This document shows positions 6,873-31,440 of a stretch of DNA of 64,000 bases, in pieces. The notes below the pieces were generated by a model, which saw only the letters and a program-made list of their open reading frames with translations, was not told the origin of the DNA and made no database searches. Each line of letters begins with the position of its first letter. The stretch's first letter is position 1. The position numbers and the translations under genes are program-made. Source of the stretch: Spirochaetia bacterium (GTDB lineage Bacteria; Spirochaetota; Spirochaetia; SZUA-6; Bin103); the NCBI GenBank assembly GCA_965203905.1, contig CBDBDQ010000005.1:1376001-1440000 (forward strand), given 5' to 3'.

Positions 6873-7148
6873 ACAGGCGCCGCAACCCACCTGCACCCGG
6901 CCGCCGCGGCACGCCCCGGCGGCCGGTGCCGTTTCAGGCCGCGACCCGAGCCAATTGCGCGCGAACTCGTGCCCGCCGGCCGAGCGGAACCGACTTCGGC
7001 GCCGCTGGCGAGCCTCGCTGCGCGCCCTGCACCGCCATCCCACTTCCACTCGCGAAATGGCGAATTTCTTGTCGGTTTCGCGATTTTTTCGTCGATTCGT
7101 GAATTTGACGAACTGGTTTTTGCCTCATTGCTCTACGATGGCGAACCT

Positions 7149-8045
7149 ATGATGAGACACTTGCGCTTGGCACCGTGCGGGAGGCTGGCGCTCGCGGCCA
7201 TTCTCGTCGCAACGATCCTGGTCGCGTGCGGCCGTGGCGGCGGCATGCCCATGACCACCGATCCGGAGCCGGACCCCGAACCGGCACCTACCCTGGTAGG
7301 GACGTGGCGCACGACCGAGGCCTGGACCGACTACGAGACGGGGGAGGCCAGGACCTCGGTCACCCTGCTGACGTTCATCGGCGGGCGAGCCATCGCGGCG
7401 GAGACCGCGTTCGACCAGCACGGCAACCGCCTGTGGAGCGGGGCCTCCGCAAGCGGCTGGGAGGCGACCGAGACCACGGTTACCCGGCTGTGGTTCGAGG
7501 ACGTCACCTTCGATGGCGACGAGTACGCCCCGGTTCACGGCAGGGTCGAGAAAGCCTACTACTGGGGCAACGACGAGCGCAGCGTGGTGCTCATGCATGC
7601 GTGGTATTGGACTGACGAGTCCTCGACGTTCCTCCGCTATGAGCGGGTGCCGGACGCGATGCCGGACCTGGTCGGCCGCTGGACCAGCACCGAGCCCAGC
7701 CCGGGGAGCACCCTGACGGTAGGGGCGGACGGCTCCGTGGTGTTCGACGAGCCTGGATATCTAGTAGTCGACGAGGATGGCACGGAGGTAGAGGTGACTT
7801 TCCGTCTGGCCGGCACCGGTGCGTTCGATCCCGCCACCGGCTTCCTGACCCTGACGGACGCTACCTTGTCGTCGCTGAACGGGGCGGTCGGACCGGACGA
7901 TCATAGCCATCCCCTGGAGGACGGGACCCGCCTGGCGGTGGCTCCGGCCGTAGACGGCATCGTGCTATCGAACTACTGGGACGAGACAATCGGGGAAGAC
8001 GCTCCGTACGGAGCTTACTGGACACACCTGGCGCGCGCCGAATAG
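7149..8045 (+). CDS. Lipoprotein with two GxW-initiated modules; distant paralog of the array lipoproteins, lacking the Ig domain
   Basis: Lipobox LVAC; PEPDPEP linker; PTLVGTW...TVTRLW...RYERV...LVGRW...LTVGADG...LTLTDAT...YGAYW is colinear with the array proteins. Confidence 0.75.
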   Translation: MMRHLRLAPCGRLALAAILVATILVACGRGGGMPMTTDPEPDPEPAPTLVGTWRTTEAWTDYETGEARTSVTLLTFIGGRAIAAETAFDQHGNRLWSGASASGWEATETTVTRLWFEDVTFDGDEYAPVHGRVEKAYYWGNDERSVVLMHAWYWTDESSTFLRYERVPDAMPDLVGRWTSTEPSPGSTLTVGADGSVVFDEPGYLVVDEDGTEVEVTFRLAGTGAFDPATGFLTLTDATLSSLNGAVGPDDHSHPLEDGTRLAVAPAVDGIVLSNYWDETIGEDAPYGAYWTHLARAE

Positions 8046-16979: not shown

Positions 16980-17003
16980 TCCTGCTAATTCTGGTAGGGA
17001 CTC
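16980..17003. promoter_or_regulatory. Degenerate copy of the array palindrome upstream of luxR (putative autoregulatory site)
   Basis: TCCTGCTAATTCTGGTAGGGACTC versus TCCTACCAATCCTGGTAGGGACTC in the array leaders. Confidence 0.6.
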
Positions 17004-17052: not shown

Positions 17053-18201
17053 ATGAGCGACCGAGACGCATTCGAGCGCATCCTGGCGTCGCTGTACGAC
17101 GCCATGCTCGACGATACCCAGTGGCCGGTTACTTCCACCCTGATTGACGAAGCCTGCGGCCTGACGGGCAATTCACTCCTCGTTGGGGAAGGCCCGATGG
17201 ACGACATCCAAGCGCACTTCGTCGGGGTCTACTACCGTGGGCAGCGCCGTACCGATCTGGAGCGCGAGTACACCGAGGTCTACCACCCTATCGACGAAAT
17301 GGTACCGCGCCTTCGGAATCAGTCCGACGGACGACTGGTGCAGATCTCCGACCTGTACACGACGGAAGAGTTGAAGACCTCGCCCACCTACAATGAGATA
17401 TTGCTGCGAGGCAAGTACCAGAATGGCTTGGCCGTGCGCATAGTCGCCGCGGATGGCGTCTACAAGAGCTGGGGCCGCTGGTGCCTCGCCGATCCCGTGG
17501 GCTCGGAGGACCGGAGTTCTTCGCAGATCAAGATGATCGCGCGGCTAGTGCCGTACATCCGACAGTTTTTTCGCGTCCGGCAGGCGCTGGTCCGCGCGCA
17601 GGCTCGGGCAGTGACCGCGGCCACCCTGCTCGATAACCCCCGACTCGGCGTTGTACACCTGGACCGGCGTGGTCGGATCATGGCGGTGAATGACCGCGCT
17701 CGCGGCATCCTGCGACACGGCGACGCGTTGTCCGACCGGGATGGGGAGTTGCATGCCCGTACGCCGGAAGACCGGCGCCGTCTGGAGCGTCTGCTGGGCG
17801 CCGCTCTGCCGACTTCCGGTGCTGTCGCGCTCAGTGGGTCGATGCCGCTCCGCCGCTCGTCTGCGCTGCCGCCGTTGGTGGTGCACGTCAAACCCGTGGC
17901 GGTCCAGCAACCGCACTACGGAGCGCGGTTCATCGCGGCGCTGGTACTGATCGAAGAGCCGGGGCGCCGGCATCGTATCGACCCACGCTTGATAGCCGCG
18001 GCTCTGGGGCTGACGCCGAGGGAAAGTCAGGTAGCGGCTTGGCTGGCGGAAGGCAAGAGTGTCGACGAAATGGCCCAGGCCACGGGTCACACCAGGGGCG
18101 CCATCTATTGGCACCTGAAGCAGATCTACCAGAAACTGCACATCTCACGGCAGCCGGATCTGGTGCGGCTGGTGCTGTCGGTCGCCGAGTTGGGCTACTA
18201 A
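17053..18201 (+). CDS. LuxR-family HTH transcriptional regulator with N-terminal sensor and PAS-like domains
   Basis: C-terminal GLTPRESQVAAWLAEGKSVDEMA...HLKQIYQKLHISRQPDLV; central GVVHLDRRGRIMAVNDRA. Confidence 0.9.
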   Translation: MSDRDAFERILASLYDAMLDDTQWPVTSTLIDEACGLTGNSLLVGEGPMDDIQAHFVGVYYRGQRRTDLEREYTEVYHPIDEMVPRLRNQSDGRLVQISDLYTTEELKTSPTYNEILLRGKYQNGLAVRIVAADGVYKSWGRWCLADPVGSEDRSSSQIKMIARLVPYIRQFFRVRQALVRAQARAVTAATLLDNPRLGVVHLDRRGRIMAVNDRARGILRHGDALSDRDGELHARTPEDRRRLERLLGAALPTSGAVALSGSMPLRRSSALPPLVVHVKPVAVQQPHYGARFIAALVLIEEPGRRHRIDPRLIAAALGLTPRESQVAAWLAEGKSVDEMAQATGHTRGAIYWHLKQIYQKLHISRQPDLVRLVLSVAELGY

Positions 18202-18255
18202 CCGCAACGCCACCCACCTCCTCGGTGAGCAGTCCAATTGCTTGGCTGCGTCCTC

Positions 18256-18280
18256 AGTCCTACCAATCCTGGTAGGGACT
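18256..18280. promoter_or_regulatory. Palindromic operator-like site, cassette 1
   Basis: AGTCCTACCA-ATCC-TGGTAGGGACT inverted repeat. Confidence 0.7.
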
Positions 18281-18495
18281 CTCGGGTAATCGTGTCAGAA
18301 GATCGTTCTCGTCAGTCACCCGACTCCGACCTGCGTGCAAGGCAAGCGCGGCCGCGCCAGACCTCGGCAAGCGCTTCCAACCGCTCCGGAGGGCGTGGTG
18401 CAAGTGTCTGGCAAGACGGTTGGGGACGCAGGTTAGTGGATGCGATGGTATTCGCTTATGGCACAGCCTTCGAAAGTGCAGGAGAGGAGAATCAA

Positions 18496-19593
18496 ATGAA
18501 GTCTCGTCGAATCAGTAGACTGCTGGCGGTTTCCGCTGCCGTCGCCGCAGCGGTGGTGCTCTTGGCAGGTTGCCCAAGGGCGGTCAAGACACCGATCAGT
18601 TTCGCCGCGGGCGACCTTACGCTGACGCTACCGGCAATGGTGATAGGCACGGCCATCTCCGCAATAGTGTTGCCGGAGGCGTCCGGGGGAGAAGGTGCTC
18701 TCACCCACACTCTAGCTCCCGAGGTCCCGGGCCTTACGTTCGACCCCGAGACCCGGCAGTTGAACGGAATACCGACTACGGCCGGAAGCTATCCGCTGCG
18801 TTACACGGCAACGGATGAAGACGGCGCCACGGCCACCCTGAGCTTTGTGGTTACGGTAAGACCGACACTCTGGGGCTCTTGGCGTAACACCAGCAGATGG
18901 GACCATGACGGAGAAATCGTGGGAACGATCGTGGAGACTCTGACGTTCACTACCAGCAGGTTCATCATGTACAGGTCATACTATCGGACCGATGGTTCGT
19001 TGGACGGCAGGGATTGGGAGAGTGGTACCTGGGCAGCATCTGACGACACCGTGACAAAGACTTGGTATGTCAATGACGACGACGACCGCGACACTCCGGA
19101 CGTCCTCAGGAGTCTGGACAAGGACTATGTGTGGGCGGATGAGGCGCGCGACGTGTTATTTTTGCACGTATGGCGCCGTTGGAGTGACAGTCAGAATTTC
19201 GATCGTTACGAGCGCGTTCAAAATGTATCGCCGTCGTCGGTCGTCGGCGTATGGCAGAACTCCGATCTGTACGACGATTGGGACTTTACGCTTACGGTAA
19301 ACGCCGATGGCACGTTGCTGCTTGAGCATTCGTGGCCCGAAGGAATTGACACGGTGACTGCAGAGTGGCAACTCGATGAGGATGAATACTATCTCAATCT
19401 GTCCGACGCTAGCGCCACCTGGACCCCAACCGATGGAGTACCGCAACCTCATGGAACCATTGCGCCTCGGTTTGCCTTCGCTCCCACCGATCAGTGGCCG
19501 GACGAGATGATCGTGTCCTTCTGGCAGGAGAACCCGGCCGTCGGAAGTTATAGCAGGTTCGGGGTCTATTGGATGCTATTCCAACGGCAATAG
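18496..19593 (+). CDS. Array lipoprotein 1 (lipobox, He_PIG-like Ig domain, two GxW modules), 365 aa
   Basis: AGGAG RBS; MKSRRISRLL...LLAGC; PGLTFDPETRQLNGIPTTAGSYPLRYTATD. Confidence 0.88.
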   Translation: MKSRRISRLLAVSAAVAAAVVLLAGCPRAVKTPISFAAGDLTLTLPAMVIGTAISAIVLPEASGGEGALTHTLAPEVPGLTFDPETRQLNGIPTTAGSYPLRYTATDEDGATATLSFVVTVRPTLWGSWRNTSRWDHDGEIVGTIVETLTFTTSRFIMYRSYYRTDGSLDGRDWESGTWAASDDTVTKTWYVNDDDDRDTPDVLRSLDKDYVWADEARDVLFLHVWRRWSDSQNFDRYERVQNVSPSSVVGVWQNSDLYDDWDFTLTVNADGTLLLEHSWPEGIDTVTAEWQLDEDEYYLNLSDASATWTPTDGVPQPHGTIAPRFAFAPTDQWPDEMIVSFWQENPAVGSYSRFGVYWMLFQRQ

Positions 19594-19795
19594 TCGAATT
19601 GGCCGCGTACTCGGCTACCGATGCGCCATCCTCTGCGAGACTTCTTGCGGCTGTGGCGCTGGCGGCGTGACCTCGGTTGGCGTGGTCCACTAATACTGGA
19701 TGCTCTCCGCGGGAGACTACAGCGGCGGGCGTCATGCCGGCTCATCCGACTGGAGAAGTTGCCTCACCGGGCCCGTGAGACGGCTATCGACAAGG

Positions 19796-19827
19796 AGATC
19801 AGGCAGGACGACGATCCTGCCTGATCT
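19796..19827 (+). terminator. 13-bp-stem hairpin in the cassette trailer (variants near 22796-22826, 24449-24482 and 29357-29386)
   Basis: AGATCAGGCAGGA-CGACGA-TCCTGCCTGATCT; only the copy at 24449 is followed by a T-run. Confidence 0.5.
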
Positions 19828-19883
19828 GTCTACGCAAGGATCTGGTGCGGCTGGTGCTGTCGGTCGCCGAGTTGGGCTACTAA

Positions 19884-21192
19884 GGAGTCTCGCCAAAATA
19901 AGTTGGTCTTTTAGTCACTGTCGGGGAGTCAGCATGTAGTTCCATTCGCCGTGAAACCGATCGCGCTTCAGATTCAGTGCCTGCATCTGTTCGTCGCTCA
20001 CCGTCTGCCCCGTCGGGTAGCTGTTGTGGTCCAACTCCGAGCGGATCGTCAAGCCGCTCCTGGTCCTCGTGTGGCCGATCAGGTTCACCACCACCTGCCG
20101 GCTCACCAGCGGTCGCCCGCGCCAGTTCTCGGTGATGTGACAGAACATCCGATGCTCGATCTTGTTCCACTTGCTGGTCCCCGGCGGAAAGTGACACACC
20201 GAGATGCGCAGCCCCGTGGCATCGGCGAACTGCTGCAACTCCACCTTCCACAGCCGACTGCGACTGCTGTTGGAACCGCCCCCGTCGGCCGTGATCAGCA
20301 ACCGCCGCGCCTGTGGATACGCCATATGGCCCATCCTCTGCCACCACCTCCGCAGTGTCTCCACGGCGAATACCGCGGTGTCGTGATCCTCCCCCACGCT
20401 CACCCAGCCGGTGTCACCGGTCACGTCGTAGATCCCGTACGGAATCGCCTTGCCGAGCGTCTTATCCACGAAATCGTGCACCTTGACGCGCTCCGGTTGG
20501 CCCTTCGGGCGCCACTCTCGACCCCCGTTGCGGTACTCGCCCACCAACTCCTTTTTCTTGGTGTCAACAGAAACTACCGGCTGCCGCAGAGCCTGAAACG
20601 CGCGCACCCTCCGGTTGATGTGCTTGAACTGCGCATCGCGGTCGACATGCTGCGTGCCTTCCAGCGTCTTGCGGTTGGCCTGCAGGCTGTAGCCCAACTC
20701 ATGCAACAGCCGGTTCACGGTCCGCTCGCTCACCGGGTGACCGGCCGCCTGCAGTTCCTCGGCCAACCGCGCCGCGCTACTGCAGGTCCACAGCAACGGC
20801 CCCATCGGGTCGCCGCGGGTGACCGGGTCGACCAACCGCTCCAGCGCCTGTGTCAACTTCGGGTCGCGGGCGGTCAACGGCTTACGGCCTGCGCCGGGTC
20901 GTCGCTGGCGTCCGCTGTTGGCTTGTGCCCCTGCTGCTGCGCCGGCATCCAGTTCCTTCAGCCCGGCGTGAATGGTGGTCCGCGAGATCCCGGTGGCGGC
21001 TGCCACACAGGCGATGCCGCCACGGCCCAGCAGGCGCGCCTCCACCGCAGCCCAGCGGCGCCGGAGGCGCTCGTCAAACAATGGATTCAGGGCTGCGAAC
21101 TTGGTCTTGACCGCTTGGGTGAGAATTGGGTCCACTACGTCTGAGTAGATTATCGGCTACTCCTTTCGACCACTTTATTTTGGCGAGAGCCC
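19884..21192 (-). mobile_element. ISAzo13-family insertion sequence, 1309 bp
   Basis: Imperfect TIRs GGAGTCTCGCCAAAATAAGTTGGTC and (reverse complement) GGGCTCTCGCCAAAAATAAAGTGGTC; 3-bp TAA duplication at 19881-19883 and 21193-21195. Confidence 0.92.
19915..21135 (-). CDS. ISAzo13-family DDE transposase
   Basis: TRGDPMGPLLWT, DRDAQF, SVDTKKKELVG, ITADGGGSN and PPGTSKWNKIEHRMF. Confidence 0.95.
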   Translation of the reverse strand: MDPILTQAVKTKFAALNPLFDERLRRRWAAVEARLLGRGGIACVAAATGISRTTIHAGLKELDAGAAAGAQANSGRQRRPGAGRKPLTARDPKLTQALERLVDPVTRGDPMGPLLWTCSSAARLAEELQAAGHPVSERTVNRLLHELGYSLQANRKTLEGTQHVDRDAQFKHINRRVRAFQALRQPVVSVDTKKKELVGEYRNGGREWRPKGQPERVKVHDFVDKTLGKAIPYGIYDVTGDTGWVSVGEDHDTAVFAVETLRRWWQRMGHMAYPQARRLLITADGGGSNSSRSRLWKVELQQFADATGLRISVCHFPPGTSKWNKIEHRMFCHITENWRGRPLVSRQVVVNLIGHTRTRSGLTIRSELDHNSYPTGQTVSDEQMQALNLKRDRFHGEWNYMLTPRQ

Positions 21193-21249
21193 TAACCGCA
21201 ACGCCACCCACCTCCTCGGTGAGCAGTCCAATTGCTTGGCTGCGTTCTC

Positions 21250-21274
21250 AGTCCTACCAATCCTGGTAGGGACT
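21250..21274. promoter_or_regulatory. Palindromic operator-like site, cassette 2
   Basis: AGTCCTACCAATCCTGGTAGGGACT. Confidence 0.7.
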
Positions 21275-21497
21275 CTCGGGCAATCGTGTCAGAAGATCGT
21301 TCTCGTCAGTCACCCGACTCCGACCTGCGTGCGAAGCATGCGACGCCGCGCCAGACCTCGGATAGCGATCCCACCCGCTCCGGAGGGCGTAGAGCAAATG
21401 CTTGGGAAGGCGGTTGACGGTTGGGGGACGCAGGTTGGTGGATGCGATGGCATTCGCTTATGGCGCAGGCTTCGAATGTGCAAGAGAGGAGAATCAA

Positions 21498-22619
21498 GTG
21501 AAGTTTCGTCGACTCAGTAGACTGCTGGCGGTTTCCGCTGCCGTCGCCGCGGTGGTGCTCTTGGCAGGTTGCCCAAGGGCGGTCAAGACGCCGATCAGTT
21601 TTGCCGCGGGTGACCTTACGCTGACGCTACCGGCAATGGTGAAAGACACGGCCATATCCGCAGTTGTGTTGCCGGAGGCGTCCGGGGGAGAAGGTGCTTT
21701 CTCCTATGCCCTGGCTCCCGAGGTTCCGGGCCTTACGTTCGACCCCGAGACCCGACAGTTGAGCGGGACCCCGACTACGGCCGGAAGCTATCCGTTGCGC
21801 TACACGGCGACGGATGAAGACGGCGCCTCGGTCACCCTGAGCTTCACGGTCACGGTAAGACCGACGCTGTGGGGCTCTTGGCGTACCACCAGCAGATGGC
21901 ACGATGACGGAGAACTCGTGGGAACGGTCGTGGAGACTCTGACGTTCACTACCAGCAGGTTCATCATGTACAGAGCACACTATCGGACCGATGGTTCGTT
22001 TGACGGCAGAGCGTTGGAGAGTGGTACCTGGACAGCATCTGACGACGCCGTGACAAAGACTTGGTATGTCAATGACGACGACGACCGCGACACTCCGGAC
22101 GTCCTAAGGAGTCTGGACAAGGACTATGTGTGGGCGGATGGGGCGCGCGATGTGTTACTGTTGCACGAATGGCGCGGTTGGAGTGCCAGTCAGAGTTTCG
22201 ATCGCTACGAGCGCGTTCAAAATGTATCACCGTCGTCGGTAGTCGGCGTATGGCAGAGGTCGGGAATGGGGGACGATTGGTCTTTCGTTCAAACGCTTAC
22301 GGTATACCCCGATGGCACGTTGCTATACGAGAATTCGTGGTCTGAACGAGAGTCCGGAGGAGTTTGGGAGATGACTGCAAACTGGCAGCTTGTTGAGGAT
22401 GAGTACTATCTCAATCTGACCGACGCTAGCGCCACCTGGACCCCAACCGGTGGAGTAACGGAACCGGACTCAGATTTTGAGGGTGCGTCTCGGTGGGCCT
22501 TCGCTCTCACCGACCAGTGGCCGGACGAGATGATAGTGTCGCCCTTCTGGGACGAAGATCCGGCCTATGATAGTTATAGAGAGTATGGACACTACTGGAT
22601 GACCTTCCAACGGCAATAG
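21498..22619 (+). CDS. Array lipoprotein 2, 373 aa
   Basis: GTG after AGGAG; LLAGC lipobox; same architecture as copy 1. Confidence 0.88.
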   Translation: MKFRRLSRLLAVSAAVAAVVLLAGCPRAVKTPISFAAGDLTLTLPAMVKDTAISAVVLPEASGGEGAFSYALAPEVPGLTFDPETRQLSGTPTTAGSYPLRYTATDEDGASVTLSFTVTVRPTLWGSWRTTSRWHDDGELVGTVVETLTFTTSRFIMYRAHYRTDGSFDGRALESGTWTASDDAVTKTWYVNDDDDRDTPDVLRSLDKDYVWADGARDVLLLHEWRGWSASQSFDRYERVQNVSPSSVVGVWQRSGMGDDWSFVQTLTVYPDGTLLYENSWSERESGGVWEMTANWQLVEDEYYLNLTDASATWTPTGGVTEPDSDFEGASRWAFALTDQWPDEMIVSPFWDEDPAYDSYREYGHYWMTFQRQ

Positions 22620-22917
22620 TCGAATTGCGCCGCGTACTCAGTTACCGAGCGCCATCCTCTGCGAGGCTTCTTGCGGCTGTGGCGCCGGCGGCGTGACCTG
22701 GGTTCGCGGAGGACACTGAGCAGCGGGCGTCGTGTCGGCTCATCCGACCGGAGAGAGTGCCTCACCGGCCTCGTGACACGGGCTATCGGCAAGGAAATCA
22801 GGCAGGACGACAATCCTGCCTGGTCTATCTACGCAAGGATCTGCTCTGTCGGTCGCCGAGTTGGGCTACGAACCCCGGGTCCTCGGCGGGCAGTCCGGTT
22901 TGCTTGCTGGCTTTCTC

Positions 22918-22942
22918 AGTCCTACCAATCCTGGTAGGGACT
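22918..22942. promoter_or_regulatory. Palindromic operator-like site, cassette 3
   Basis: AGTCCTACCAATCCTGGTAGGGACT. Confidence 0.7.
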
Positions 22943-23159
22943 CTCGGGCAGTCGTGTCAGAGGATCGTTCTCGTCAGTCACCGACTCCGACCTGCGCGCA
23001 AACGCATGCGCGGCCGCGCCCAACCCCTCGGATAGCGATTCCATCCGCTCCGGAGGGGACGGTGCACGTTGCTTGGAAGGCGGTTGGGGACGCAGGTTAG
23101 CGGATGCGACGATATTCGCTTTTGGCACAGCCTTCGAAAGTGCAAGAGAGGAGAATCAA

Positions 23160-24248
23160 ATGAAGTCTCGTCGAATCAGTAGACTGCTAGTGGTTGCCAC
23201 TGCCGTCGCCGCGGTGGTGTTCTTGGTAGGTTGCACAAGGGCGGTCAAGACGCCTATCAGTTTCGCCGCGGGCGACCTTACGCTGACGCTACCGGCAATG
23301 GTGAAAGGCACGGCCATCTCCGCAGTCGTGCTGCCGGAGGCGTCCGGGGGAGAAGGTGCTCTCACCCACACTCTAGCTCCCGAGGTCCCGGGCCTTACGT
23401 TCGACCCCGAGACCCGACAGTTGAGCGGGACACCGACTACGGCCGGAAGCTATCCGCTGCGTTACACGGCGACGGATGAAGACGGCGCCACGGCCACCCT
23501 GAGCTTCACGCTCACGGTAAGACCGACGCTGTGGGGCTCTTGGCGTAACACCAGTATCCGGTACTATGACGGCGAAGTGGGAACGGTCGTGGAGACTCTG
23601 ACGTTCACTACCAGCAGGTTCATCATGTACAGGTCATACTATCGGCCCGATGGTTCGTTTGACGGCTGGCATTGGGAGAGTGGTACCTGGGCAGCATCTG
23701 ACGACACCGTGACAAAGACTTGGTATGTCGATGACGACGACGACCACGAGACTCCGGAAGTCCTCAGGAGTCTGGACAAGGACTATGTGTGGGTGGATGA
23801 GGCGCGCGATGTGTTATTGTTGCACGAATGGCGCCGTTGGAGTGCCAGTGAGACTTTCGATCGCTACGAGCGCGTGAAAAGTGTATCGCCGTCGTCGGTA
23901 GTGGGCGTATGGCAGAACTCCGATCTGTACGACGATTGGGACTTTACGCTTACGGTTAACGCCGATGGCACGTTGCTGTTCGACGCTTCGGAGCTCGGCG
24001 GAGTTTGGAAGGTGACTGCAAAGTGGCAGCTCGATGAGGATGAGTACTTTCTCAATCTGACCGACGCGACCGACGTCTGGACCCCAACCGGTGGAGTACC
24101 GCAACTTCGGAACCTTGCGTCTCGGTTTGCCTTCGCTCCTACCGATCAGTGGCCGGATGGGATGACAGTGTCCTTCTGGCACGAAGACCCGGACCATCCC
24201 AATTTTAAAGAGTTCGGGTCCTATTGGATGACCTTCCAACGGCAATAG
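23160..24248 (+). CDS. Array lipoprotein 3, 362 aa
   Basis: ATG after AGGAG; FLVGC lipobox; same architecture. Confidence 0.88.
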   Translation: MKSRRISRLLVVATAVAAVVFLVGCTRAVKTPISFAAGDLTLTLPAMVKGTAISAVVLPEASGGEGALTHTLAPEVPGLTFDPETRQLSGTPTTAGSYPLRYTATDEDGATATLSFTLTVRPTLWGSWRNTSIRYYDGEVGTVVETLTFTTSRFIMYRSYYRPDGSFDGWHWESGTWAASDDTVTKTWYVDDDDDHETPEVLRSLDKDYVWVDEARDVLLLHEWRRWSASETFDRYERVKSVSPSSVVGVWQNSDLYDDWDFTLTVNADGTLLFDASELGGVWKVTAKWQLDEDEYFLNLTDATDVWTPTGGVPQLRNLASRFAFAPTDQWPDGMTVSFWHEDPDHPNFKEFGSYWMTFQRQ

Positions 24249-24537
24249 TCGAATTGCGCCGCGTACTCAGCTACCGAGCGCCATCCTCTGCGAGGCTTCT
24301 TGCGGCTGTGGCGCCGGCGGCGTGACCTGCGTTGGCGTGGTCCACTGATACTGGATGCTCTCGTGGGAGAGTGCAACAGCGGGCGTCATGCCGGCCCATC
24401 CGACCGGAGAAGGTGCCTCACCGGGCCCGTGAGACGGCTATCGACAAGGAGATCAGGCAGGACGACGATCCTGCCTGATCTCTTTTCGTCTAACCCCAGC
24501 GTCAACGACTCCTACCTCAGGTAGGAAGGAAAGAATC

Positions 24538-27500
24538 TTGAGAGCAAGAGTAGTAGCGATACTGGAGATACTGGTCGCTGTCATTGCTGTTGCCCTGGTC
24601 ATGGGGTGCAGCGGATCGGTGATGGGCATGATCGAAACTCCTGCTGCCGAGCCACGACCTGAGAAGACACCATCTGAGCAGGCGGAAAAAACCACGATCA
24701 CTTTCCGGGTAGTGGAGCCCCTCCTTGCGGACAGAAATGGTCCGGGTGTAGCAGCAGTGAAGGTTATCCTCCAGTCCGGACAGGAAAAAGTGAAGGAAAC
24801 AGCTACCGACGGCAGCGTTACCTTCGTGGGCAGCCTCCCTCTCACCGTCCGGATTGAAAAACCCGGCTATATCACCACCACAGCCACCGTGACGGACGAG
24901 TCAGGCCAGGAGATCGTCTTTCCCAACGAGTGGCCGGAGGAGGCAAAAGAAGCCATTCGCCAACTTGGCTTAGAGGAGATGATTGCTTCAGGTGAGCTTG
25001 TCCTGAGGTGGGGGGACACCGAGTTCCTCTATACCCTTGATGGAGATGTGGGGGGACTGTACGTTTGTCCTAACATAATCATTAGGGATCACACCAATAA
25101 CGGAAACCGCCGGATGTGGATCTTGGTTCACGAACTAATGCATGTTTGGCAAGGTTTGAACTCCACAAATCCACCTTGCGAGATTGATCCTGGCTGGACT
25201 CAGTCCGAGGAAGGCAGGGCTTGGATTGCCGCCATAGATGAGGACCTCAGGGAAGTTGGCCCCATCTCCGGTTTTGATGATTCGGCATGGGCATCAAAGG
25301 ATGTTCCACACGAGAATCAGGCCTCGTTTTATGCCCAATGGGCATATGGCCTTGAGAGAACAAGAGAGGAGCTGGAAAAACTCTGTGGCTTAGCACCAAA
25401 CCGGTGCCGGTACCTGCAGGACAGATTCGGACCTCCGCCGCCGCGCATGACCGGGACCAACAGCGCGCCGACGGCAGACGCCGGCCCTGATCAGACGGTG
25501 ACCGCGAGCGACACCGTGACCCTCCGGGGCAGCGGCACCGACGCCGAAGACCAGAACCTGACCTACTCCTGGTCGCAGACCGGTGGCGTACCGACCGTCG
25601 AGTTGCGCTCGGACCAGGCCGCAACCTCCTTCACTGCACCCGACGTAGACGCGGTTACCATGCTCACCTTCGCGCTCACGGTGACCGACTCGGGCGGCCT
25701 CACGGGTACCGATTCCGTGACTGTCACGGTCCTGCCCCCGCTCTCCGTGGCGGTCTCCGTGACGTTCGTCGAAGACTCCGTGCGCGTCGTGGAAGGGGAA
25801 GAGGTGGCCGTTGGCATCCGGTACCGAGCCCGGGAGCTCGCCTCGCCGCTGACGATCCAGGTCTCCGTGCTTGAGGACCAGGCCGAGGCGGCCGACTACG
25901 AATTGTCGGAGACCCGTTTCGAGATCCCGGCCGGGAGAGACATTCTGGGAACCCTGGAACTCACCCTCAGCACGCGGACCGACGACTCCTTCGCCGAGGG
26001 GGAGGAAGCCATCGAGCTGCGGCTCTTGGTGCCTGAGGCGATTGGAGCGGAGGTCGGAGGGCCGCTCTCGGTGACGATCTCCGATGCCGCGGTGTCCGCC
26101 TGCGTTGGCGTCACCCTGGCAGGCACGCCTCCCGAACCCGTGGAAGAAGTTGGAGGGCTCCGGATCCGCACTTCGCTGACCTCGGAGTGGCACGCGAGCG
26201 CGCGGGAAGTAACGATGCGGTGGGTCGGCCCATATGGCGAGGTATGGCATTGGGTCGATGTCGAGCACCACCCGTATTACGACGAGAGAGCCAAACCCTT
26301 TCCGCCACCACCCGACTTCCATATCGAGGCGTGGCAGTTCGATCCCGGAAGCGCCTCCACCACCCACATGATGGATGTCTCGTGGTCAGCCAAGGCCGAC
26401 CTGGAACTCATGTTCCGCTGCCAAACCGGCGCCGTTGTCGCCGTCTGCGATTCGGCGGGATGTACGATCGAGGCGACGACGGCATCCCGTACGATATCCG
26501 GCAGTCCGAGCGCACTCCATTCAGCGCTCTGGGGCGAGGGCTCGGAAAGCGGACTTCGAGCTGCGTCCTACCTCGTTGCGCCGGATCGAAGGTGGCATCC
26601 GTCAGTGTGGGGACCGGGCGATACGCTTGTTTTTCACCTTTCGACGGAAAACTGGCCGGACGACGCCCGGATGACGCCAGCGGACGTGAAGGAAGTTCTG
26701 GAGAGGATGCTGGCCGAGTGGTCGGCTGTTCCAACGGCGGACATCTCCTGGCGAGTCGAAGGACCGGCGGACGGGCTCTTGCCGGGAAAGGACGGGAAGA
26801 ACATCTTCTGGATAGACCCGGGGTACGTGCACGGCGGTGGTAGCGGACCAACGAGATGGTACGAGACTATCGATGGGGTCCACGGACTGGTGGAGGCTGA
26901 TCATCGCATCGACCCCAACTCGCTGAGAGTGTCAAGTTACGACAGGCCGTGGCCCTACATCGCCAATGAGCTGGGTATGCACCCTCTCGGCCATACCCTC
27001 GGCTTGGAACATGCGGCTACGTTCCCTGTTTTTTCGCCTTGTCCGGGGCCGCGCTCAGATGACTGCGGACGGGTCGACGGGGACCTCGGCTATTGGCGAG
27101 ATGTCCGCGGCGCCTGGCAACTGGACCCGATCATGTCGTACGGGGCGTCCGGCACTTTGAGCTTTCTGGACGATGGGTCGGCCTTGCGGCTCGACGACAA
27201 GATCGGGGCGTCGCTGCTCCGCCCGAAACCCGGCTGGCTCGAAACTACCGGCTCGATTGCCGGGTCAGTCAGCACCGATGACGGGCGGCCGGTTCCGTTC
27301 ATCCACGTATGGGCCGTGCGGCCCGACGAGCGCGGCCTGATGGACGGTACAGGGTCGTTCGCCAACCGGAACGGCGACTTTCTGATCCGGGGCCTACCGC
27401 CCGGAGACTGGATCCTCATCGCACATCCGGACTTGTCCTGGCTGGCGAATCCGTGGTTCTTCTTCGAGCGGCAGGGCGAACTGACCGACGAGATGATGCT

Positions 27501-27585
27501 CTTCCCGGTGCGCGCCCGCGCCGGGCAGACGACATCAGGCATCGAGATCACCATGTCGCGGGGCCGGATGACGACAGTGCCGTGA
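24538..27585 (+). CDS. Large multidomain lipoprotein: HEXXH domain, PKD/REJ-like, Calx-beta-like, matrixin-like and carboxypeptidase-regulatory-like domains
   Basis: VMGC lipobox; HELMH; NSAPTADAGPDQTV...TYSWSQT; HPLGHTLGLEH with PIMSY Met-turn; GDFLIRGLPPGDW. Confidence 0.8.
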   Translation: MRARVVAILEILVAVIAVALVMGCSGSVMGMIETPAAEPRPEKTPSEQAEKTTITFRVVEPLLADRNGPGVAAVKVILQSGQEKVKETATDGSVTFVGSLPLTVRIEKPGYITTTATVTDESGQEIVFPNEWPEEAKEAIRQLGLEEMIASGELVLRWGDTEFLYTLDGDVGGLYVCPNIIIRDHTNNGNRRMWILVHELMHVWQGLNSTNPPCEIDPGWTQSEEGRAWIAAIDEDLREVGPISGFDDSAWASKDVPHENQASFYAQWAYGLERTREELEKLCGLAPNRCRYLQDRFGPPPPRMTGTNSAPTADAGPDQTVTASDTVTLRGSGTDAEDQNLTYSWSQTGGVPTVELRSDQAATSFTAPDVDAVTMLTFALTVTDSGGLTGTDSVTVTVLPPLSVAVSVTFVEDSVRVVEGEEVAVGIRYRARELASPLTIQVSVLEDQAEAADYELSETRFEIPAGRDILGTLELTLSTRTDDSFAEGEEAIELRLLVPEAIGAEVGGPLSVTISDAAVSACVGVTLAGTPPEPVEEVGGLRIRTSLTSEWHASAREVTMRWVGPYGEVWHWVDVEHHPYYDERAKPFPPPPDFHIEAWQFDPGSASTTHMMDVSWSAKADLELMFRCQTGAVVAVCDSAGCTIEATTASRTISGSPSALHSALWGEGSESGLRAASYLVAPDRRWHPSVWGPGDTLVFHLSTENWPDDARMTPADVKEVLERMLAEWSAVPTADISWRVEGPADGLLPGKDGKNIFWIDPGYVHGGGSGPTRWYETIDGVHGLVEADHRIDPNSLRVSSYDRPWPYIANELGMHPLGHTLGLEHAATFPVFSPCPGPRSDDCGRVDGDLGYWRDVRGAWQLDPIMSYGASGTLSFLDDGSALRLDDKIGASLLRPKPGWLETTGSIAGSVSTDDGRPVPFIHVWAVRPDERGLMDGTGSFANRNGDFLIRGLPPGDWILIAHPDLSWLANPWFFFERQGELTDEMMLFPVRARAGQTTSGIEITMSRGRMTTVP

Positions 27586-27644
27586 CCGAGCGCAGCAGGC
27601 GTGCCGACTGATCGGCGCCAGCCGGTGATGATGTCTCGCACGTG

Positions 27645-27672
27645 ACAATAAGCAAAGCACAATAAGCAAAGC
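27645..27672 (+). repeat. Exact 14-bp tandem duplication ACAATAAGCAAAGC x2
   Basis: Read directly between the large lipoprotein gene and cassette 4. Confidence 0.85.
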
Positions 27673-27830
27673 GCCGGCAGCGATAACCGGGCAGCAGTGC
27701 GTTCGGGCGCGACGTGGACTATGCAGCGGAGCCACCAGTTCGGCTGGCGCTGTCGGTCGCCGAGTTGCGCTACTAACCGCAACGCCGCCCGCTAACCCGG
27801 TTGGTAGTCCGAATGCTTGGCCGCGTTCTC

Positions 27831-27855
27831 AGTCCTACCAATCCTGGTAGGGACT
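27831..27855. promoter_or_regulatory. Palindromic operator-like site, cassette 4
   Basis: AGTCCTACCAATCCTGGTAGGGACT. Confidence 0.7.
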
Positions 27856-28072
27856 CTCGGGCAATCGTGTCAGAGGATCGTTCTCGTCAGTCACCCGACT
27901 CCGACCTGCGTGCAAGGCATGCGCGACCGCGCGCCCACCCTCGGCAAGCGATCCCACCCGCTTCGGAGGGCGTAGAGCCGGTGCCTGGGAAGGCGGCTGG
28001 GGACGCAGGTTAGTGGATGCGATGGTATTCGCTTATGGCGCAGGCTTCGAATGTGCAAGAGAGGAGATTCAA

Positions 28073-29152
28073 GTGAAGTTTCGTCGACTCAGTAGACTGC
28101 TGGCGGTTTCCGCTGCCGTCGCCACGATGGTGTTCTTGGCAGGTTGCCCAAGGGCGGTCAAGACGCCGATCAGTTTCGCCGCTGGTGACCTTACGCTGAC
28201 GCTACCGGCAATGGTGAAAGGCACGGCCATCTCCGCAGTCGTGTTGCCGGAGGCGTCCGGGGGAGAAGGTGCTTTTACCTATGCCCTGGCTCCCGAGGTC
28301 CCGGGCCTCACGTTCGACCCCGAGACCCGACAGTTGAGCGGGACACCGACTGCGGCCGGAAGCTATCCGCTGCGTTACACGGCAACGGATGAAGACGGCG
28401 CCTCGGTCACCCTGAGCTTCCCTGTCATGGTAAGACCGACGCTGTGGGGCTCTTGGCGTAACACCAGCAGATGGCACCATGACGGAGAAGTGGGAACGAT
28501 CGTGAAGACTCTGACGTTTACCAAGAGCAGGTATATCCTGTATGAGTCGTTGAATAGAGAGGACGGTTCGTTGTACCGCAGGCATTGGCAGAATGGTGCC
28601 TGGACAGCGTCTGACGACACCGTGACGAAGACTTGGTATCACTATAACGAAGACGGCGAGACTTCAGCCGTCCTCACGAGTCTGGAAAAGGACTATGTAC
28701 TATCGGATGAAGGTAACACATTGTTCGTTCCGGACTGGTGGGATTCCGCCGGCGTGGAGACGAGGTTTACGCGCTACGAGCGCGTGCATAATGTATCGCC
28801 ATCGTCGGTAGTGGGCGTATGGCAGAACTCCGAGCGGTCGGACGATCGGGACTTTGCGCTTACGGTAAACGCCGATGGCACGTTGTTATTTGATTATTCG
28901 GAGCCCGAAGGAGTTCATACGGTGACTGCAAAGTGGCAGCTCGATGAGGATGAGTACTATCTCAATCTGACCGACGCTAGCGCCACCTGGACCCTAACCG
29001 GTGGAGTACCGCAACCTGGAACCTCTGCGCCTCGGTTTGCCTTTGCTCCTACCGATCAGTGGCCGGACGAGATGATAGTGTCCTTCTTCCAGGAAGACCC
29101 GACCGACTATAGAAAGTTCGGGCTCTATTGGTTGCACTTCCAACGGCAATAG
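28073..29152 (+). CDS. Array lipoprotein 4, 359 aa
   Basis: GTG after AGGAG; FLAGC lipobox; same architecture. Confidence 0.88.
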   Translation: MKFRRLSRLLAVSAAVATMVFLAGCPRAVKTPISFAAGDLTLTLPAMVKGTAISAVVLPEASGGEGAFTYALAPEVPGLTFDPETRQLSGTPTAAGSYPLRYTATDEDGASVTLSFPVMVRPTLWGSWRNTSRWHHDGEVGTIVKTLTFTKSRYILYESLNREDGSLYRRHWQNGAWTASDDTVTKTWYHYNEDGETSAVLTSLEKDYVLSDEGNTLFVPDWWDSAGVETRFTRYERVHNVSPSSVVGVWQNSERSDDRDFALTVNADGTLLFDYSEPEGVHTVTAKWQLDEDEYYLNLTDASATWTLTGGVPQPGTSAPRFAFAPTDQWPDEMIVSFFQEDPTDYRKFGLYWLHFQRQ

Positions 29153-29421
29153 TCGAATTGCGCCGCGTACTCAACTTCCGATGCCCCATCCTCTGCGAGG
29201 CTTCTTGCGGCTGTGGCGCTGGCGGCGTGACCTCGGTTGGCGTGGTCCACTGATACGGGATGCTCTCCGCGGGAGACTGCAGCGGCGGGCGTCATGCCGG
29301 CTCATCCGACTGGAGAAGGTGTCTCACCGGCCTCGTGAGACTGCTATCGGCAAGGAGATCAGGCAGGACGACGATCCTGCCTGATCGGTCTACGAAACGA
29401 TCTGATTTGTCGGTCATGAAC

Positions 29422-29502
29422 TTGCCGCCGTTGGTGACGCACATCTCACGGCAGGCGGACTTGGTACGCATCGTGCTAGCGGTCGTCGAGTTGGGCTACT
29501 AA
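29422..29502 (+). pseudogene. Internally deleted luxR remnant
   Basis: Encodes LPPLVT-HISRQADLVRIVLAVVELGY*, joining two distant segments of LuxR (LPPLVVH and HISRQPDLVRLVLSVAELGY*). Confidence 0.75.
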
Positions 29503-29555
29503 CCACAACGCCGCCCGCCTCCTCGGTGGACGCCCGATTGCTTGGCTGCGTTCTC

Positions 29556-29580
29556 AGCCCTACCAATCCTGGTAGGGATT
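29556..29580. promoter_or_regulatory. Palindromic operator-like site, cassette 5
   Basis: CCCTACCA-ATCC-TGGTAGGG with perfect 8-bp arms. Confidence 0.7.
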
Positions 29581-29689
29581 CTCGGGCAATCGTGTCAGAG
29601 GATCGTTCCCGTCAGTCACCCAACTCCGACCTACGTACAAGGCATGCGCAGCTGCACGCTCCGGAGGGCGTAGAGCAAATGCTTGGGAA

Positions 29690-29712
29690 GGGGGTTGGGG
29701 TTGGGGGTTGGG
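29690..29712 (+). other. G-quadruplex-forming motif G5-TT-G4-TT-G5-TT-G3
   Basis: GGGGGTTGGGGTTGGGGGTTGGG in the leader of cassette 5. Confidence 0.75.
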
Positions 29713-29783
29713 AACTCAGGTTAGTGGATGCGAAGGTATTCGCTTATGGCGCAGGCTTCGAAGGTGCAAGAGAGGAGATTCAA

Positions 29784-30908
29784 GTGAAGTTTCGTCGACT
29801 CAGTAGACTGCTGGCGGTGTCCGCTGCCGTCGCCGCGGTGGTGTTCTTGGCAGGTTGCCCAAGGGCGGTCAAGACGCCGATCAGTTTCGCCGCGGGCGAC
29901 CTTACGCTGACGCTACCGGCAATGGTGATAGGCACGGCCATCTCCGCAGTCGTGTTGCCGGAGGCGTCCGGGGGAGAAGGTGCTTTCACCTATGCCTTGG
30001 CTCCCGAGGTCCCGGGCCTTACGTTCGACCCCGAGACCCGGCAGTTGAGCGGGACACCGACTGCGGCCGGAATCTATCCGTTGCGTTACACGGCAACGGA
30101 TGAAGATGGCGACGCGGCCACCCTAAGCTTCACGGTTACGGTACGACCGACGCTGTGGGGCTCTTGGCACAATACCCATGGATGGGGAGACGGGGGAACA
30201 GAAGTGGAAACTCGGACGTTTACCAACAGCAGGTACATCATATATCGGTCGTACTATCACAAGGACGGTTCGTTTGACGGCAGCTGGCAGGAGAGTGGTA
30301 CTTGGACGGCATCTGACGACACGGTGACGAGGACTTGGTATTACGACGACGACGGCGACCCCGAGACTCCGCGAATCCGGAGGAGTCTGGACTCGGACTA
30401 TGTATGGGCGGATGAGGCGCACAATGTGTTGTTTATTCCCTTCTGGGAACCTTGGCCTGACACTCACGTGGACCCGGGTTTCCGTCGCTACGAGCGCGTG
30501 CAAAATGTATCGCCGTCTTCGGTAGTCGGCGTATGGCAGAGGTCGGACATGGGGGACGATTGGTCTGTCGTTGACACGCTTACGGTGAACGCCGATGGCA
30601 CGTTGCTATATGAGAATTCGTGGTCTGGACGAGAGTCCGGAGGAGTTTGGGAGATGACTGCAAACTGGCAGCTTGTTGAGGATGAGTACTATCTCAATCT
30701 GACCGACGCTAGCGCCACCTGGACCCCAACCGGTGGAGTACCGGAACCGGACTCCTCTTTTCTGGGTGCATCCAGGTTTGCCTACGCTCCTACCCATCAG
30801 TGGCCGGACGAGATGATAGTGTCGCCCTTCTGGCACGAAGACCCGGCCTATGGTGACAGAAATTATAGAGAGTTCGGAAACTACTGGATGACCCTCCAAC
30901 GGCAATAG
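29784..30908 (+). CDS. Array lipoprotein 5, 374 aa
   Basis: GTG after AGGAG; FLAGC lipobox; same architecture. Confidence 0.88.
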   Translation: MKFRRLSRLLAVSAAVAAVVFLAGCPRAVKTPISFAAGDLTLTLPAMVIGTAISAVVLPEASGGEGAFTYALAPEVPGLTFDPETRQLSGTPTAAGIYPLRYTATDEDGDAATLSFTVTVRPTLWGSWHNTHGWGDGGTEVETRTFTNSRYIIYRSYYHKDGSFDGSWQESGTWTASDDTVTRTWYYDDDGDPETPRIRRSLDSDYVWADEAHNVLFIPFWEPWPDTHVDPGFRRYERVQNVSPSSVVGVWQRSDMGDDWSVVDTLTVNADGTLLYENSWSGRESGGVWEMTANWQLVEDEYYLNLTDASATWTPTGGVPEPDSSFLGASRFAYAPTHQWPDEMIVSPFWHEDPAYGDRNYREFGNYWMTLQRQ

Positions 30909-31032
30909 TCGAATTGCGCCACGCGCCTGGACTCGGCCTACAACGGACTTGGCCCGTGGTGGAACGCCGGAGCGTCGCACACGAATGCGACGCTTCCGGA
31001 ACAAAGCCCTACTTCGGTAGAAGAGGGGAGCC

Positions 31033-31440
31033 TTGAGAGCAAAATATGTATATCTGACACAGGCTCTGTGCCTGTCATTACTGTTGTCAGGCACACAAGG
31101 GAAAGGATGTTGCACATCATGGAGCACGAACTCTTCCATGGGCACCAATACGAATACGGGCCCGACTCCGGCCCGAGTGCCGACAAGTGCAACCTGAAAC
31201 CCTGGCGAGACTCAGCGGAAGGTCGGGCTTGGAAAGCGGCCTAGAATGCCGATCGTGACGCCGGTCTTCGAGATCCCTTGGATGATTATGTGGGATAAGA
31301 TCCAACCCACCAGGAAGGCCACCGAAGGCTCAGCCGAGTTCTGGGCTTGGTGGCGTCGAGCCGAGCCTGGTCACCAGAGCCAAGTCCGCGACCTCTGCAA
31401 AATCGCCACCTCACGGTGTGCACTGATGGAGCATTGGTGG
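31033..31440 (+). pseudogene. Decayed paralog of the N-terminal HEXXH domain of the 24538..27585 protein
   Basis: TTG-AGA-GCA start as at 24538; frameshifted fragments HELFHGHQ, WRDSAEGRAWKAA*, EGSAEFWAWW and LCKIATSRC match HELMHVWQ, WTQSEEGRAWIAA, ENQASFYAQW and LCGLAPNRC. Confidence 0.75.

Follow-up and report, generated by a model that had tools for sequence, protein, structure and literature searches.

How does a bacterium come to carry, one behind the other, five closely related lipoprotein genes in units that each open with the end of a luxR-type regulator gene, and is such a locus a machinery for varying the cell surface? The question is raised by a stretch of 64,000 nucleotides from a Spirochaetia bacterium (Genome Taxonomy Database lineage Spirochaetota; Spirochaetia; SZUA-6; Bin103; assembly GCA_965203905.1, contig CBDBDQ010000005.1, positions 1,376,001 to 1,440,000 of the forward strand), hereafter the window, in which an array headed by an intact luxR gene occupies positions 17053–30923. 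An earlier account made from the letters alone (the sequence-only reading) had proposed a candidate undescribed system here. The anatomy proved to be that of a tandemly duplicated gene family under gene conversion, in which the copies are complete and each could be expressed, and no dedicated diversifying enzyme was found. We consider it probable that the locus holds a lineage-specific, recombining multigene lipoprotein family, not a dedicated variation machine; its domain architecture is new and its barrel family unnamed, but the evolutionary process is a known one, and the locus is not a new kind of system. A literature search, with supplements outside its scope, found no published description of the double-barrel family or of the array locus.

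Results

Organisation of the array

The genome comprises 7.99 Mb in five contigs, and the window corresponds to positions 1376001–1440000 of its 7.79-Mb contig, hereafter C5. Self-comparison of the window revealed five DNA repeat units of ~1.7 kb (18138–19883, 21192–22872, 22843–24481, 27738–29415 and 29439–30923), pairwise 79–89% identical. In the alignment, each unit consists of the last 40–66 nt of luxR, a leader of 280–302 nt, a gene and, in units 1–4, a trailer; unit 1 lies directly behind the intact luxR, and the other units are headed by a luxR 3′ stub. A ribosome-binding site (RBS)-like GAGAGGAGA stands 7–8 bases ahead of the ATG or GTG in each of the five paralogs; paralogs 2–5 are 81, 81, 75 and 76% identical to paralog 1, and all indels between them are in frame. 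The trailer (~220–245 nt) is present after genes 1–4, absent after gene 5, and ends in a perfect hairpin with 13-bp arms. The features of the array are as follows, in window coordinates.

16981..16998, +, degenerate palindrome copy with 2 mismatches, 55–72 nt upstream of the luxR start; candidate autoregulatory operator
17053..18201, +, LuxR-family one-component regulator, 382 aa, with a GerE helix-turn-helix (HTH)
18202..18495, +, cassette 1 leader, palindrome at 18259–18276, RBS ahead of ATG
18496..19593, +, paralog 1, 365 aa, with lipobox, He_PIG and two predicted lipocalin-like barrels
19594..19837, +, cassette 1 trailer, non-coding, hairpin at 19796–19827, probably a terminator
19838..19883, +, 46-bp copy of the luxR 3′ end, 100% identical to 18156–18201; duplication junction opening cassette 2
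19884..21191, −, ISAzo13-family insertion sequence (IS) in the head of cassette 2; transposase of 406 aa at 19915–21135
21192..21497, +, cassette 2 leader, palindrome at 21253–21270
21498..22619, +, paralog 2, 373 aa
22620..22879, +, cassette 2 trailer (22620–22836) with an internal deletion, then a luxR stub of ~40 nt
22880..23159, +, cassette 3 leader, palindrome at 22921–22938
23160..24248, +, paralog 3, 362 aa
24249..24481, +, cassette 3 trailer, 92.8% identical to trailer 1
24538..27585, +, intact gene for a 1015-aa protein with lipobox-like N-terminus, HELMH motif, K319L-like PKD and CarboxypepD_reg domains
27738..28072, +, cassette 4 luxR stub (27738–27776) and leader, palindrome at 27834–27851
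28073..29152, +, paralog 4, 359 aa
29153..29502, +, cassette 4 trailer (29153–29397), then a longer luxR stub of ~66 nt
29503..29783, +, cassette 5 leader, palindrome at 29559–29576, with a 27-nt deletion relative to the other leaders
29784..30908, +, paralog 5, 374 aa, without a conserved trailer behind it

A second luxR-headed array lies on the other strand ~67 kb upstream (C5:1323731–1328037), with two full-length paralogs (374 and 364 aa) and its own luxR (C5:1326898–1328037, 73% identical to that of the window). Genome-wide, there are thus seven complete paralogs in two arrays, numbered here as units 1–5 (window) and 6–7 (second array). All seven copies keep an open frame, lipobox, RBS and palindrome despite 11–21% nucleotide divergence, and five of the seven carry the hairpin trailer. 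The middle part of the ~66-nt stub after trailer 4 matches the second-array luxR and not the adjacent one.

Most of the anatomy described in the sequence-only reading is borne out: the five intact paralogs of 359–374 aa, with their positions and motif blocks (open reading frame (ORF) listing, start sites, alignment), a cassette of luxR 3′ end, palindrome-bearing leader and gene in every unit, the conserved trailer confined to cassettes 1–4, and frames that stay open despite indels. It had also described neighbouring accessory genes as decayed, whereas truncation is limited to the luxR stubs, which are duplication scars and not decayed accessory genes; the 1015-aa gene and the transposase are intact. 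The trailer was considered as a decayed gene and rejected, having no open frame and a single match elsewhere (115 nt at 75% on contig C4), itself likewise without a convincing ORF. An Rfam search of positions 16500–32000 (E-value mode) returned four chance-level matches, all of which fell within the 1015-aa gene; leaders and trailers gave no match.

Tandem duplication and exchange between copies

The growth of the array can be read from its junctions. Between units 1 and 2, the end of the trailer (...CAAGGATCTG) runs on into luxR sequence, which in luxR itself comes after ...CCGGATCTG; in the alignment the joint falls in the common GGATCTG, and the 46 nt behind it are 100% identical to the luxR end. 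A segment reaching from the luxR 3′ end to the trailer was therefore duplicated in tandem. The junction between units 2 and 3 is of the same type, with an additional 12-nt deletion, and units 5 and 7 have another type in common, in which the trailer is longer and the stub measures 66 nt. Tandem duplication produced the units, and every copy carries a luxR stub because the duplicated segment began in the luxR 3′ end. The ancestral unit comprised luxR, leader, gene and trailer, its amplification leaving joints between the trailer and the last 40–66 nt of luxR.

This amplification is confined to a narrow lineage. The barrel domain of the paralogs (see below) was found in 10 of the 41 genomes searched, this one included, and all ten belong to the same family; it occurs in 9 of 23 other genomes of that family and in none of 17 genomes from seven other families of the order. 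The relatives carry single-copy orthologs with the same architecture of an immunoglobulin-like (Ig) domain plus barrels, and their best matches are 35–45% identical; the amplification is therefore recent and specific to the lineage.

After duplication, the copies continued to exchange sequence. No unit keeps one nearest neighbour over its whole length, and the neighbours switch across arrays as well. For unit 6, for example, the nearest is unit 7 between the leader and the end of the Ig domain (0.97–0.99), unit 2 in barrel 1 (0.97–0.99), unit 5 where barrel 2 begins (0.96–0.97) and unit 1 in the trailer (0.98). Likewise, the stub of unit 7, in the second array, is of the first-array luxR type, and that of unit 5 is largely of the second-array type. 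Over 179 informative sites of the seven coding sequences, the pairwise homoplasy index (PHI) was 0.259 against a permutation mean of 0.412 (standard deviation 0.008), a value reached in none of 1000 permutations, and 41% of informative site pairs were incompatible. Taken together, the switching neighbours, PHI and incompatible pairs show that the copies are mosaics, formed by gene conversion or recombination within and between arrays. No homopolymer or short-repeat switch and no invertible promoter was seen in the aligned units.

Constant and variable parts

Mean pairwise nucleotide identity is 0.91–0.95 over the last 80 nt of the leader and onwards to the end of the Ig domain, and falls to 0.60–0.90 in the barrels, in agreement with the constant 5′ and variable 3′ parts noted earlier. 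Selection figures were calculated from the seven DNA sequences. For the Ig part the synonymous substitution rate (dS) is 0.16 and for the barrels 0.33, with ratios of nonsynonymous to synonymous rates (dN/dS) of 0.28 and 0.60, respectively. Since synonymous divergence is halved in the Ig part, its constancy reflects largely homogenisation, not purifying selection alone. In 30-codon windows, dN/dS exceeds 1 only in those starting at residues 266 (1.31) and 279 (1.07); this high stretch (residues 266–292) takes in a loop with indels.

Predicted architecture of the paralogs

Read from the sequence, the signal peptide of the paralogs consists of an MK(S/F)RR start, a hydrophobic stretch and an LAGC or LVGC lipobox with invariant Cys26. 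Lipoprotein signals combine a basic n-region and a hydrophobic core with the lipobox consensus L-(A/S/V)-(G/A)-C; by these criteria the paralogs qualify as lipoproteins, with predicted membrane anchoring and orientation. Pfam recognised He_PIG only (residues ~46–121), above cut-off in all five window paralogs (34.9–42.7 bits against a cut-off of 24), and an NCBIfam scan of the paralogs gave no match. Residues 27–128 are nearly invariant among the five, so that the near-constant lipobox and He_PIG-like Ig stalk of the sequence-only reading stand, on Pfam and alignment alike.

An AlphaFold2 model from an 18-sequence alignment reached a predicted local distance difference test score (pLDDT) of 81.8 for the whole protein, and 90.6 with a predicted template modelling score (pTM) of 0.85 for residues 126–365 alone, which form two consecutive 8-stranded up-and-down barrels. 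The stalk (model residues 31–124) matched the cadherin-like module of SraP (4m00; Z 11.9, root-mean-square deviation (rmsd) 1.9, 88 residues) and dystroglycan (Z 9.8). It thus resembles the dystroglycan-type cadherin-like domains (He_PIG, PF05345); unlike in cadherin-domain adhesins, here the domain occurs singly, as a short stalk carrying another kind of head, and is no part of a long repeat adhesin.

Structural matches of barrel 1 were Vibrio VtrC (5kev; Z 10.1, 102 residues, rmsd 3.1), its best, followed by 4gzv (8.7), 3hty (8.2) and 4qrl (8.2), all Bacteroides lipocalin-like proteins; those of barrel 2 were Tp0751 (Z 9.5), a designed 8-strand barrel (9.5), TP0435 (8.5), Vibrio ToxS (8u2f; 8.5) and classical lipocalins (7.2–7.7). 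Each barrel opens with an invariant G-x-W (G127/W129 and G251/W253), a motif that is a hallmark of lipocalins. The two GxW-initiated head modules proposed earlier are therefore recovered, each as an 8-stranded lipocalin-like barrel, and the idea that an Ig stalk carries lipocalin-like barrels is borne out at fold level in both model and structural matches. No sequence similarity was detectable between barrel 1 and barrel 2 (hhalign probability 2.4%), so an internal duplication is not demonstrable from sequence. Language-model neighbours of the protein, below the 0.9 line and thus a lead only, are lipocalin-like families too. We regard the calycin/lipocalin-like fold class as well supported by the model; membership of a lipocalin family is not supported.

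Among described proteins, bacterial lipocalin-like lipoproteins (Bacteroides BT_0869, 3hty, and BACOVA_00364, 4gzv; Treponema pallidum Tp0751, 5jk2, and TP0435, 4u3q) come close, being likewise lipid-anchored, 8-stranded up-and-down barrels (whole-barrel Z 8.2–9.5); the paralogs differ from them in having two tandem barrels, each with its GxW, behind a cadherin-like domain and in matching no Pfam lipocalin family. VtrC and ToxS, periplasmic barrels of Vibrio, show only 5–8% sequence identity to the proteins described here, and are partners of membrane transcription factors, not arrayed lipoproteins; no ToxR/VtrA-like partner is present in the window.

The LuxR-type regulator and its candidate operator

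The window LuxR carries a GerE HTH at residues 320–373 (Pfam, E 3.1e-8), preceded by 310 aa without a Pfam domain. An autoinducer-binding domain was found neither by Pfam (GerE only) nor by NCBIfam, whose HTH-region matches lay far below cut-offs; judged by its domains, the protein is not an N-acyl homoserine lactone (AHL) receptor. Its language-model neighbours are HTH regulators, and some of their clusters have PAS_8 or GAF in 10–16% of members, which is no more than a lead; one LuxR paralog (45% identical) has a weak PAS_8 match. LuxR ‘solos’ with PAS-like domains are regulators of this class that do not sense AHLs. The window LuxR resembles them in its C-terminal GerE HTH, the lack of an autoinducer-binding domain and a dyad-symmetric candidate operator, and differs in having no sensor domain at the Pfam threshold.

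That candidate operator is an 18-bp palindrome, CCTACCA-ATCC-TGGTAGG, which occurs seven times in the genome, once per cassette, where ~0.03 occurrences are expected. It lies ~237 nt ahead of the start codon and is the sole fully invariant block in the upstream half of the leader. Near-copies on C5 comprise 2 sites with one mismatch and 13 with two, and two-mismatch sites lie upstream of both luxR genes, at 55–72 nt in the window (16981–16998) and at 94 nt in the second array. Dyads ahead of both regulators and of all seven targets are the best evidence that the palindrome serves as an operator of this LuxR subfamily, and we consider it a likely candidate operator of the adjacent regulator. 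The sequence-only reading had placed the array under one sensor; LuxR-type control is plausible, with the palindrome at 7/7 copies and its near-copies upstream of both luxR genes, but ‘one sensor’ is inaccurate, as there are two arrays, each with its own luxR and no sensor domain at the Pfam threshold. The palindrome adjoined none of the relatives' orthologs in five loci, at one of which a luxR homolog (51% identical) lies 5.4 kb upstream. The seven leaders gave no covariation support for an RNA structure (term +1.99; compensatory changes in 2 of 81 pairs).

Variants in other strains and the wider family

A word-indexed protein search returned 17 relatives, five of them encoded together on a 13.3-kb contig from a metagenome. 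Two of the five share 97% identity with paralogs 1 and 2, and two share 87–88% with paralog 5; the fifth does not exceed 84% to any of the copies in this genome. Contigs of four sequencing runs were compared with the window at 90% likeness. Run X1 yielded exact contig pieces along the array, and run X2, from the same study, yielded variant pieces, including a joint of 30917 to 19602 (98 letters on its shorter side) where the end of a paralog-5-like gene is joined to the conserved trailer. In run X3, from another study, a 2965-nt contig leads from a paralog 3′ end directly into the 1015-aa gene; over the 518 nt of its paralog part there are 60 letter differences and 16 gaps (~12%), and over the 2429 nt of the 1015-aa gene there are 62 letter differences (2.6%). 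As these contigs show, array content differs among strains and the paralogs change faster than the neighbouring gene, with misassignment among similar copies possible at 90% likeness. The array is accordingly not identical across strains, as both the 13.3-kb contig and run X3 attest. Another joint, 16828 to 31253 (X1 and X2), which skips luxR and the array, was not counted; it has 21 letters on its shorter side and falls in a very deep sulfatase motif.

The two parts of the paralogs have different distributions. With the Ig domain alone, relatives 32–57% identical were found in 51 loci from uncultured bacteria of many (>10) phyla; these match the Ig part of the query only, the barrels being confined to one family. 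The pattern is consistent with lateral spread of the stalk domain. Robbins et al. 2021 (PMC8163846) report that sponge-associated genomes are enriched in cadherin-domain genes and have exchanged them by lateral transfer. For the organism studied here, we infer a sponge habitat. Several of the Ig-domain relatives carry bin prefixes that probably come from sponge studies. Of the runs with a small share of the stretch, which are labelled sponge, coral or biofilm metagenome, X6 alone was compared; it was set aside as evidence for the habitat of the array, its matches falling mainly at the sulfatase end and on the IS.

Searched against 1.84 billion proteins, a double-barrel profile matched 302 cluster representatives at E ≤ 0.001 (194 at 1e-10, 89 at 1e-30). 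Most of the 150 representatives listed are proteins of 270–320 aa with a signal peptide and barrels, without the stalk. Of 26 distant members scanned with Pfam, 15 had no family and six had He_PIG; in two, barrel 1 matched Lipocalin_4 below threshold (18.6 and 18.8 bits; cut-off 22.4), one had Lipocalin_4 above cut-off on a further barrel, one pentapeptide repeats and one BNR-like matches. As judged from these profiles, the double lipocalin-like barrel is an unnamed family of moderate size, of which the He_PIG-stalked, amplified form is a narrow offshoot. In this genome, further distant members (29–37% identical) stand at six places, one of them in the window (6969..8045, +; ~29% identical over 7299–8039, no Pfam or NCBIfam match).

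An insertion sequence and a 1015-aa gene inside the array

The absence of reverse transcriptase, integrase and invertase from the window, as reported before, is confirmed for the 48 ORFs scanned, but an intact DDE transposase of the ISAzo13 family does lie inside the array (DDE_Tnp_ISAZ013, Pfam E 4.5e-146; NF033519, 594.5 bits against a cut-off of 200). The IS has terminal inverted repeats with TAA on both sides and sits directly behind the stop codon of a luxR stub. Its eight genomic copies are all at least 99.7% identical, pointing to an element active now or recently; its read depth was far above that of the array in all four runs compared, one of them labelled a sponge metagenome. The element appears both active and widespread.

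The 1015-aa gene stands between units 3 and 4, and its product is probably a surface metalloprotease-like lipoprotein, going by its motifs; it may work together with the paralogs. The protein has a second H-rich motif near residue 800, and the gene is 97.4% conserved in the contig of another study.

Surroundings of the array

The array has 59% GC against 68–72% in its flanks, and GC at third codon positions (GC3) is ~0.65 in the paralogs and 0.85–0.95 in flanking genes of housekeeping type, a contrast suggestive of a foreign origin or of relaxed selection on codon use. Upstream of the window, 75 kb (C5:1300000–1376000) form a plastic region with IS21 (IstB and transposase), YhgA-like transposase fragments, a gene for a 1558-aa autotransporter, three more LuxR-family genes and two TPR/PMT_2 glycosyltransferase-like genes. 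It also holds further He_PIG genes and double-barrel genes, among them one for a 522-aa protein that matches the double barrel twice and is encoded downstream of an N-terminal fragment of luxR.

Elsewhere in the window, between 48500 and 56100, two ABC-transporter permease genes (47512–48513 and 56125–57090) are split by ~7.5 kb of lower-GC DNA with a GmrSD-like endonuclease gene (50609–51775), a PIN-domain gene (54883–55401) and direct repeats (49137–49194 with 54554–54611; 49553–49704 with 50397–50545); this insert looks like a small defence island in an operon. Diverged direct repeats of ~71% occupy 37003–38006 (37003–37311 with 37123–37425 and 37789–38006), in very GC-rich DNA where a crude gene prediction yielded a 98-aa ORF only. 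Two short adjacent ORFs at 60137–60891, the first with a fibronectin type III match, may be pieces of a broken larger gene.

Discussion

On the reading we prefer, that of a lineage-specific, recombining lipoprotein family, each copy would be its own transcription unit, comprising the 7-4-7 palindrome, an RBS, a complete ORF and, in five of seven cases, a terminator-like hairpin, and the LuxR-type regulator would act at the palindrome of each copy and at the degenerate copy ahead of its own gene. Exchange among the seven copies keeps the 5′ half (candidate operator, leader, signal peptide and cadherin-like domain) nearly uniform and also shuffles segments of the 3′ half, whose two barrels diverge under relaxed to locally diversifying selection. 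The products would probably be binding proteins anchored in the outer membrane, in which the cadherin-like domain would serve for spacing or adhesion; the ligands of the two barrels would be small and probably hydrophobic, or derived from a host, and the paralogs would differ in specificity, a difference that may be of adaptive value.

A number of findings weigh against this reading. As regards the fold, the lipocalin assignment rests on Z values of 8–10, middling by the structure-search tool's own note. Structure prediction gave two confident barrels, but a Foldseek search with the barrel model returned nothing at E ≤ 0.001, its weak rows being the tandem-barrel proteins DUF3598, DUF4822, APCDD1 and AimA; nor did any of the five window paralogs match a Pfam lipocalin family (e.g. 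Lipocalin_4, PF13648) at E ≤ 0.01. As regards control, the palindrome belongs to the duplicated unit, so that its conservation is partly a matter of shared ancestry, and the two sites upstream of the luxR genes may also be of common ancestry. At four of five ortholog loci of relatives, luxR is absent within 14–16 kb. A scan of the region for sigma-70-type promoters found 0 sites against 3.5 expected, and therefore we only infer independent transcription of each copy; no RNA run is among the 24 runs listed for the stretch. As regards diversification, with variable sites classed by secondary structure and hydrophobicity, variable columns are as frequent in strands (83/139) as outside them (56/101; p = 0.51), hydrophobic and polar strand positions are equally variable (p = 0.60), and overall dN/dS is below 1 (0.62 in strands, 0.58 outside).

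These last figures bear on the picture of hypervariable loops on a fixed framework, which survives in part. There is a mild excess, outside strands, of columns with at least three different residues (36/101 against 32/139 in strands; p = 0.04), and gap columns all lie outside strands or at strand ends, but variation as a whole is spread over strands and loops. It comes close to being uniform, which weakens the loop model. With dN/dS below 1 and near-uniform variation, relaxed constraint fits as well as adaptive diversification.

Metabolic ligand capture and relaxed drift are serious alternatives to an adaptive repertoire for host or phage recognition. The first, which we think possible though doubtful, would make the paralogs nutrient-capture lipoproteins serving metabolism, like the surface glycan-binding proteins of polysaccharide utilisation loci, with no role towards host or phage. 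Lipobox, Ig-like spacer and tandem small beta domains do recall surface glycan-binding lipoproteins, the lipocalin-like fold typically binds small ligands, and the flanks encode a sulfatase, a GHL6/fucosidase-like hydrolase, an aldose epimerase and sugar-acid dehydratase-like enzymes. These metabolic genes, however, have the codon usage of the host genome and nothing ties them to the repeat units; no transporter is paired with the cassettes, and seven near-identical stalks with diverging heads and strain turnover fit recognition pressure better.

An explanation that we judge unlikely holds that recent duplicates are drifting under relaxed constraint, with gene conversion a by-product of their similarity and no repertoire meaning. 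The barrel dN/dS of 0.60, the evenness of variation over strands and loops and over hydrophobic and polar positions, the low GC3 of the paralogs and a region rich in IS elements all speak for it. It sits less well with the fact that all seven copies have kept frames, lipobox, RBS and palindrome through such divergence and many in-frame indels, that the invariant framework residues of the family are retained, that dN/dS locally reaches or exceeds 1 at residues 266–292, and that related strains maintain multi-copy arrays with other variants.

At the other end stands a bolder proposal, to which we assign a low probability: that the two arrays are a recombination-driven surface-receptor repertoire of a host-associated (probably sponge) bacterium, with the homogenised 5′ block maintained as homology arm, the whole set switched on by a ligand-sensing LuxR-type regulator through one common operator, and turnover driven by host or phage recognition. 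If this were true, barrel segments would be exchanged among seven expressed genes to give combinatorial heads, and the locus would be a bacterial multigene receptor repertoire without silent cassettes, invertase or reverse transcriptase.

Multi-copy lipoprotein families that evolve by recombination are familiar from Borrelia (vls/vlp), Mycoplasma (vlp/vsa) and Neisseria (the modular fHbp). The paralogs resemble them in having a conserved 5′ part, a variable remainder and mosaic copies; they differ in lacking an expression site with silent cassettes, in their fold, and in belonging to an environmental, probably host-associated bacterium, not a pathogen. Programmed antigenic variation of the vls/pilS type, in which gene conversion feeds an expression site from silent donor cassettes, would account for mosaic copies and a strong recombination signal that extends between the arrays, and the constant 5′ part could be a homology arm. 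It is nevertheless very unlikely, and we reject such a silent-cassette system because all seven copies are complete: each is full-length, with start codon, RBS, signal peptide and operator-bearing leader (5/7 with the hairpin trailer), there are no truncated, promoterless cassettes, and the ORFs scanned include no dedicated recombinase gene.

An assembly artefact, in which strain alleles of one gene were strung together, is highly improbable. The source is metagenome-like, with 7.9% estimated contamination, and the short-read contigs of the best runs are fragmented over the array, none spanning the whole stretch. Against this stand the distinct junctions, the unique IS insertion and the unique 3-kb gene between units, exact-match contigs of run X1 over unique parts of the array, the bridging of a paralog and the 1015-aa gene in another study's contig, the separate 13.3-kb contig with five members, and the second array elsewhere on C5. 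Finally, targeted hypermutation of the barrels by a diversity-generating retroelement or similar device, suggested by a variable C-terminal part beside a constant N-terminal one, has next to no probability and is rejected, as there is no reverse transcriptase in the window (the nearest of five genomic RVT_1 matches lies >3.4 Mb away) and no extra template-like barrel copy outside family members, and dS rises along with dN.

As a lineage-specific, recombining lipoprotein family, the array is a natural example of a surface-protein set built and shuffled by duplication and homologous recombination alone. The common palindrome provides a directly testable regulator–operator pair. If the organism is sponge-dwelling, as the relatives of its stalk domain suggest, these proteins would be candidates for host-matrix or ligand recognition in a symbiosis where cadherin-type domains are enriched.

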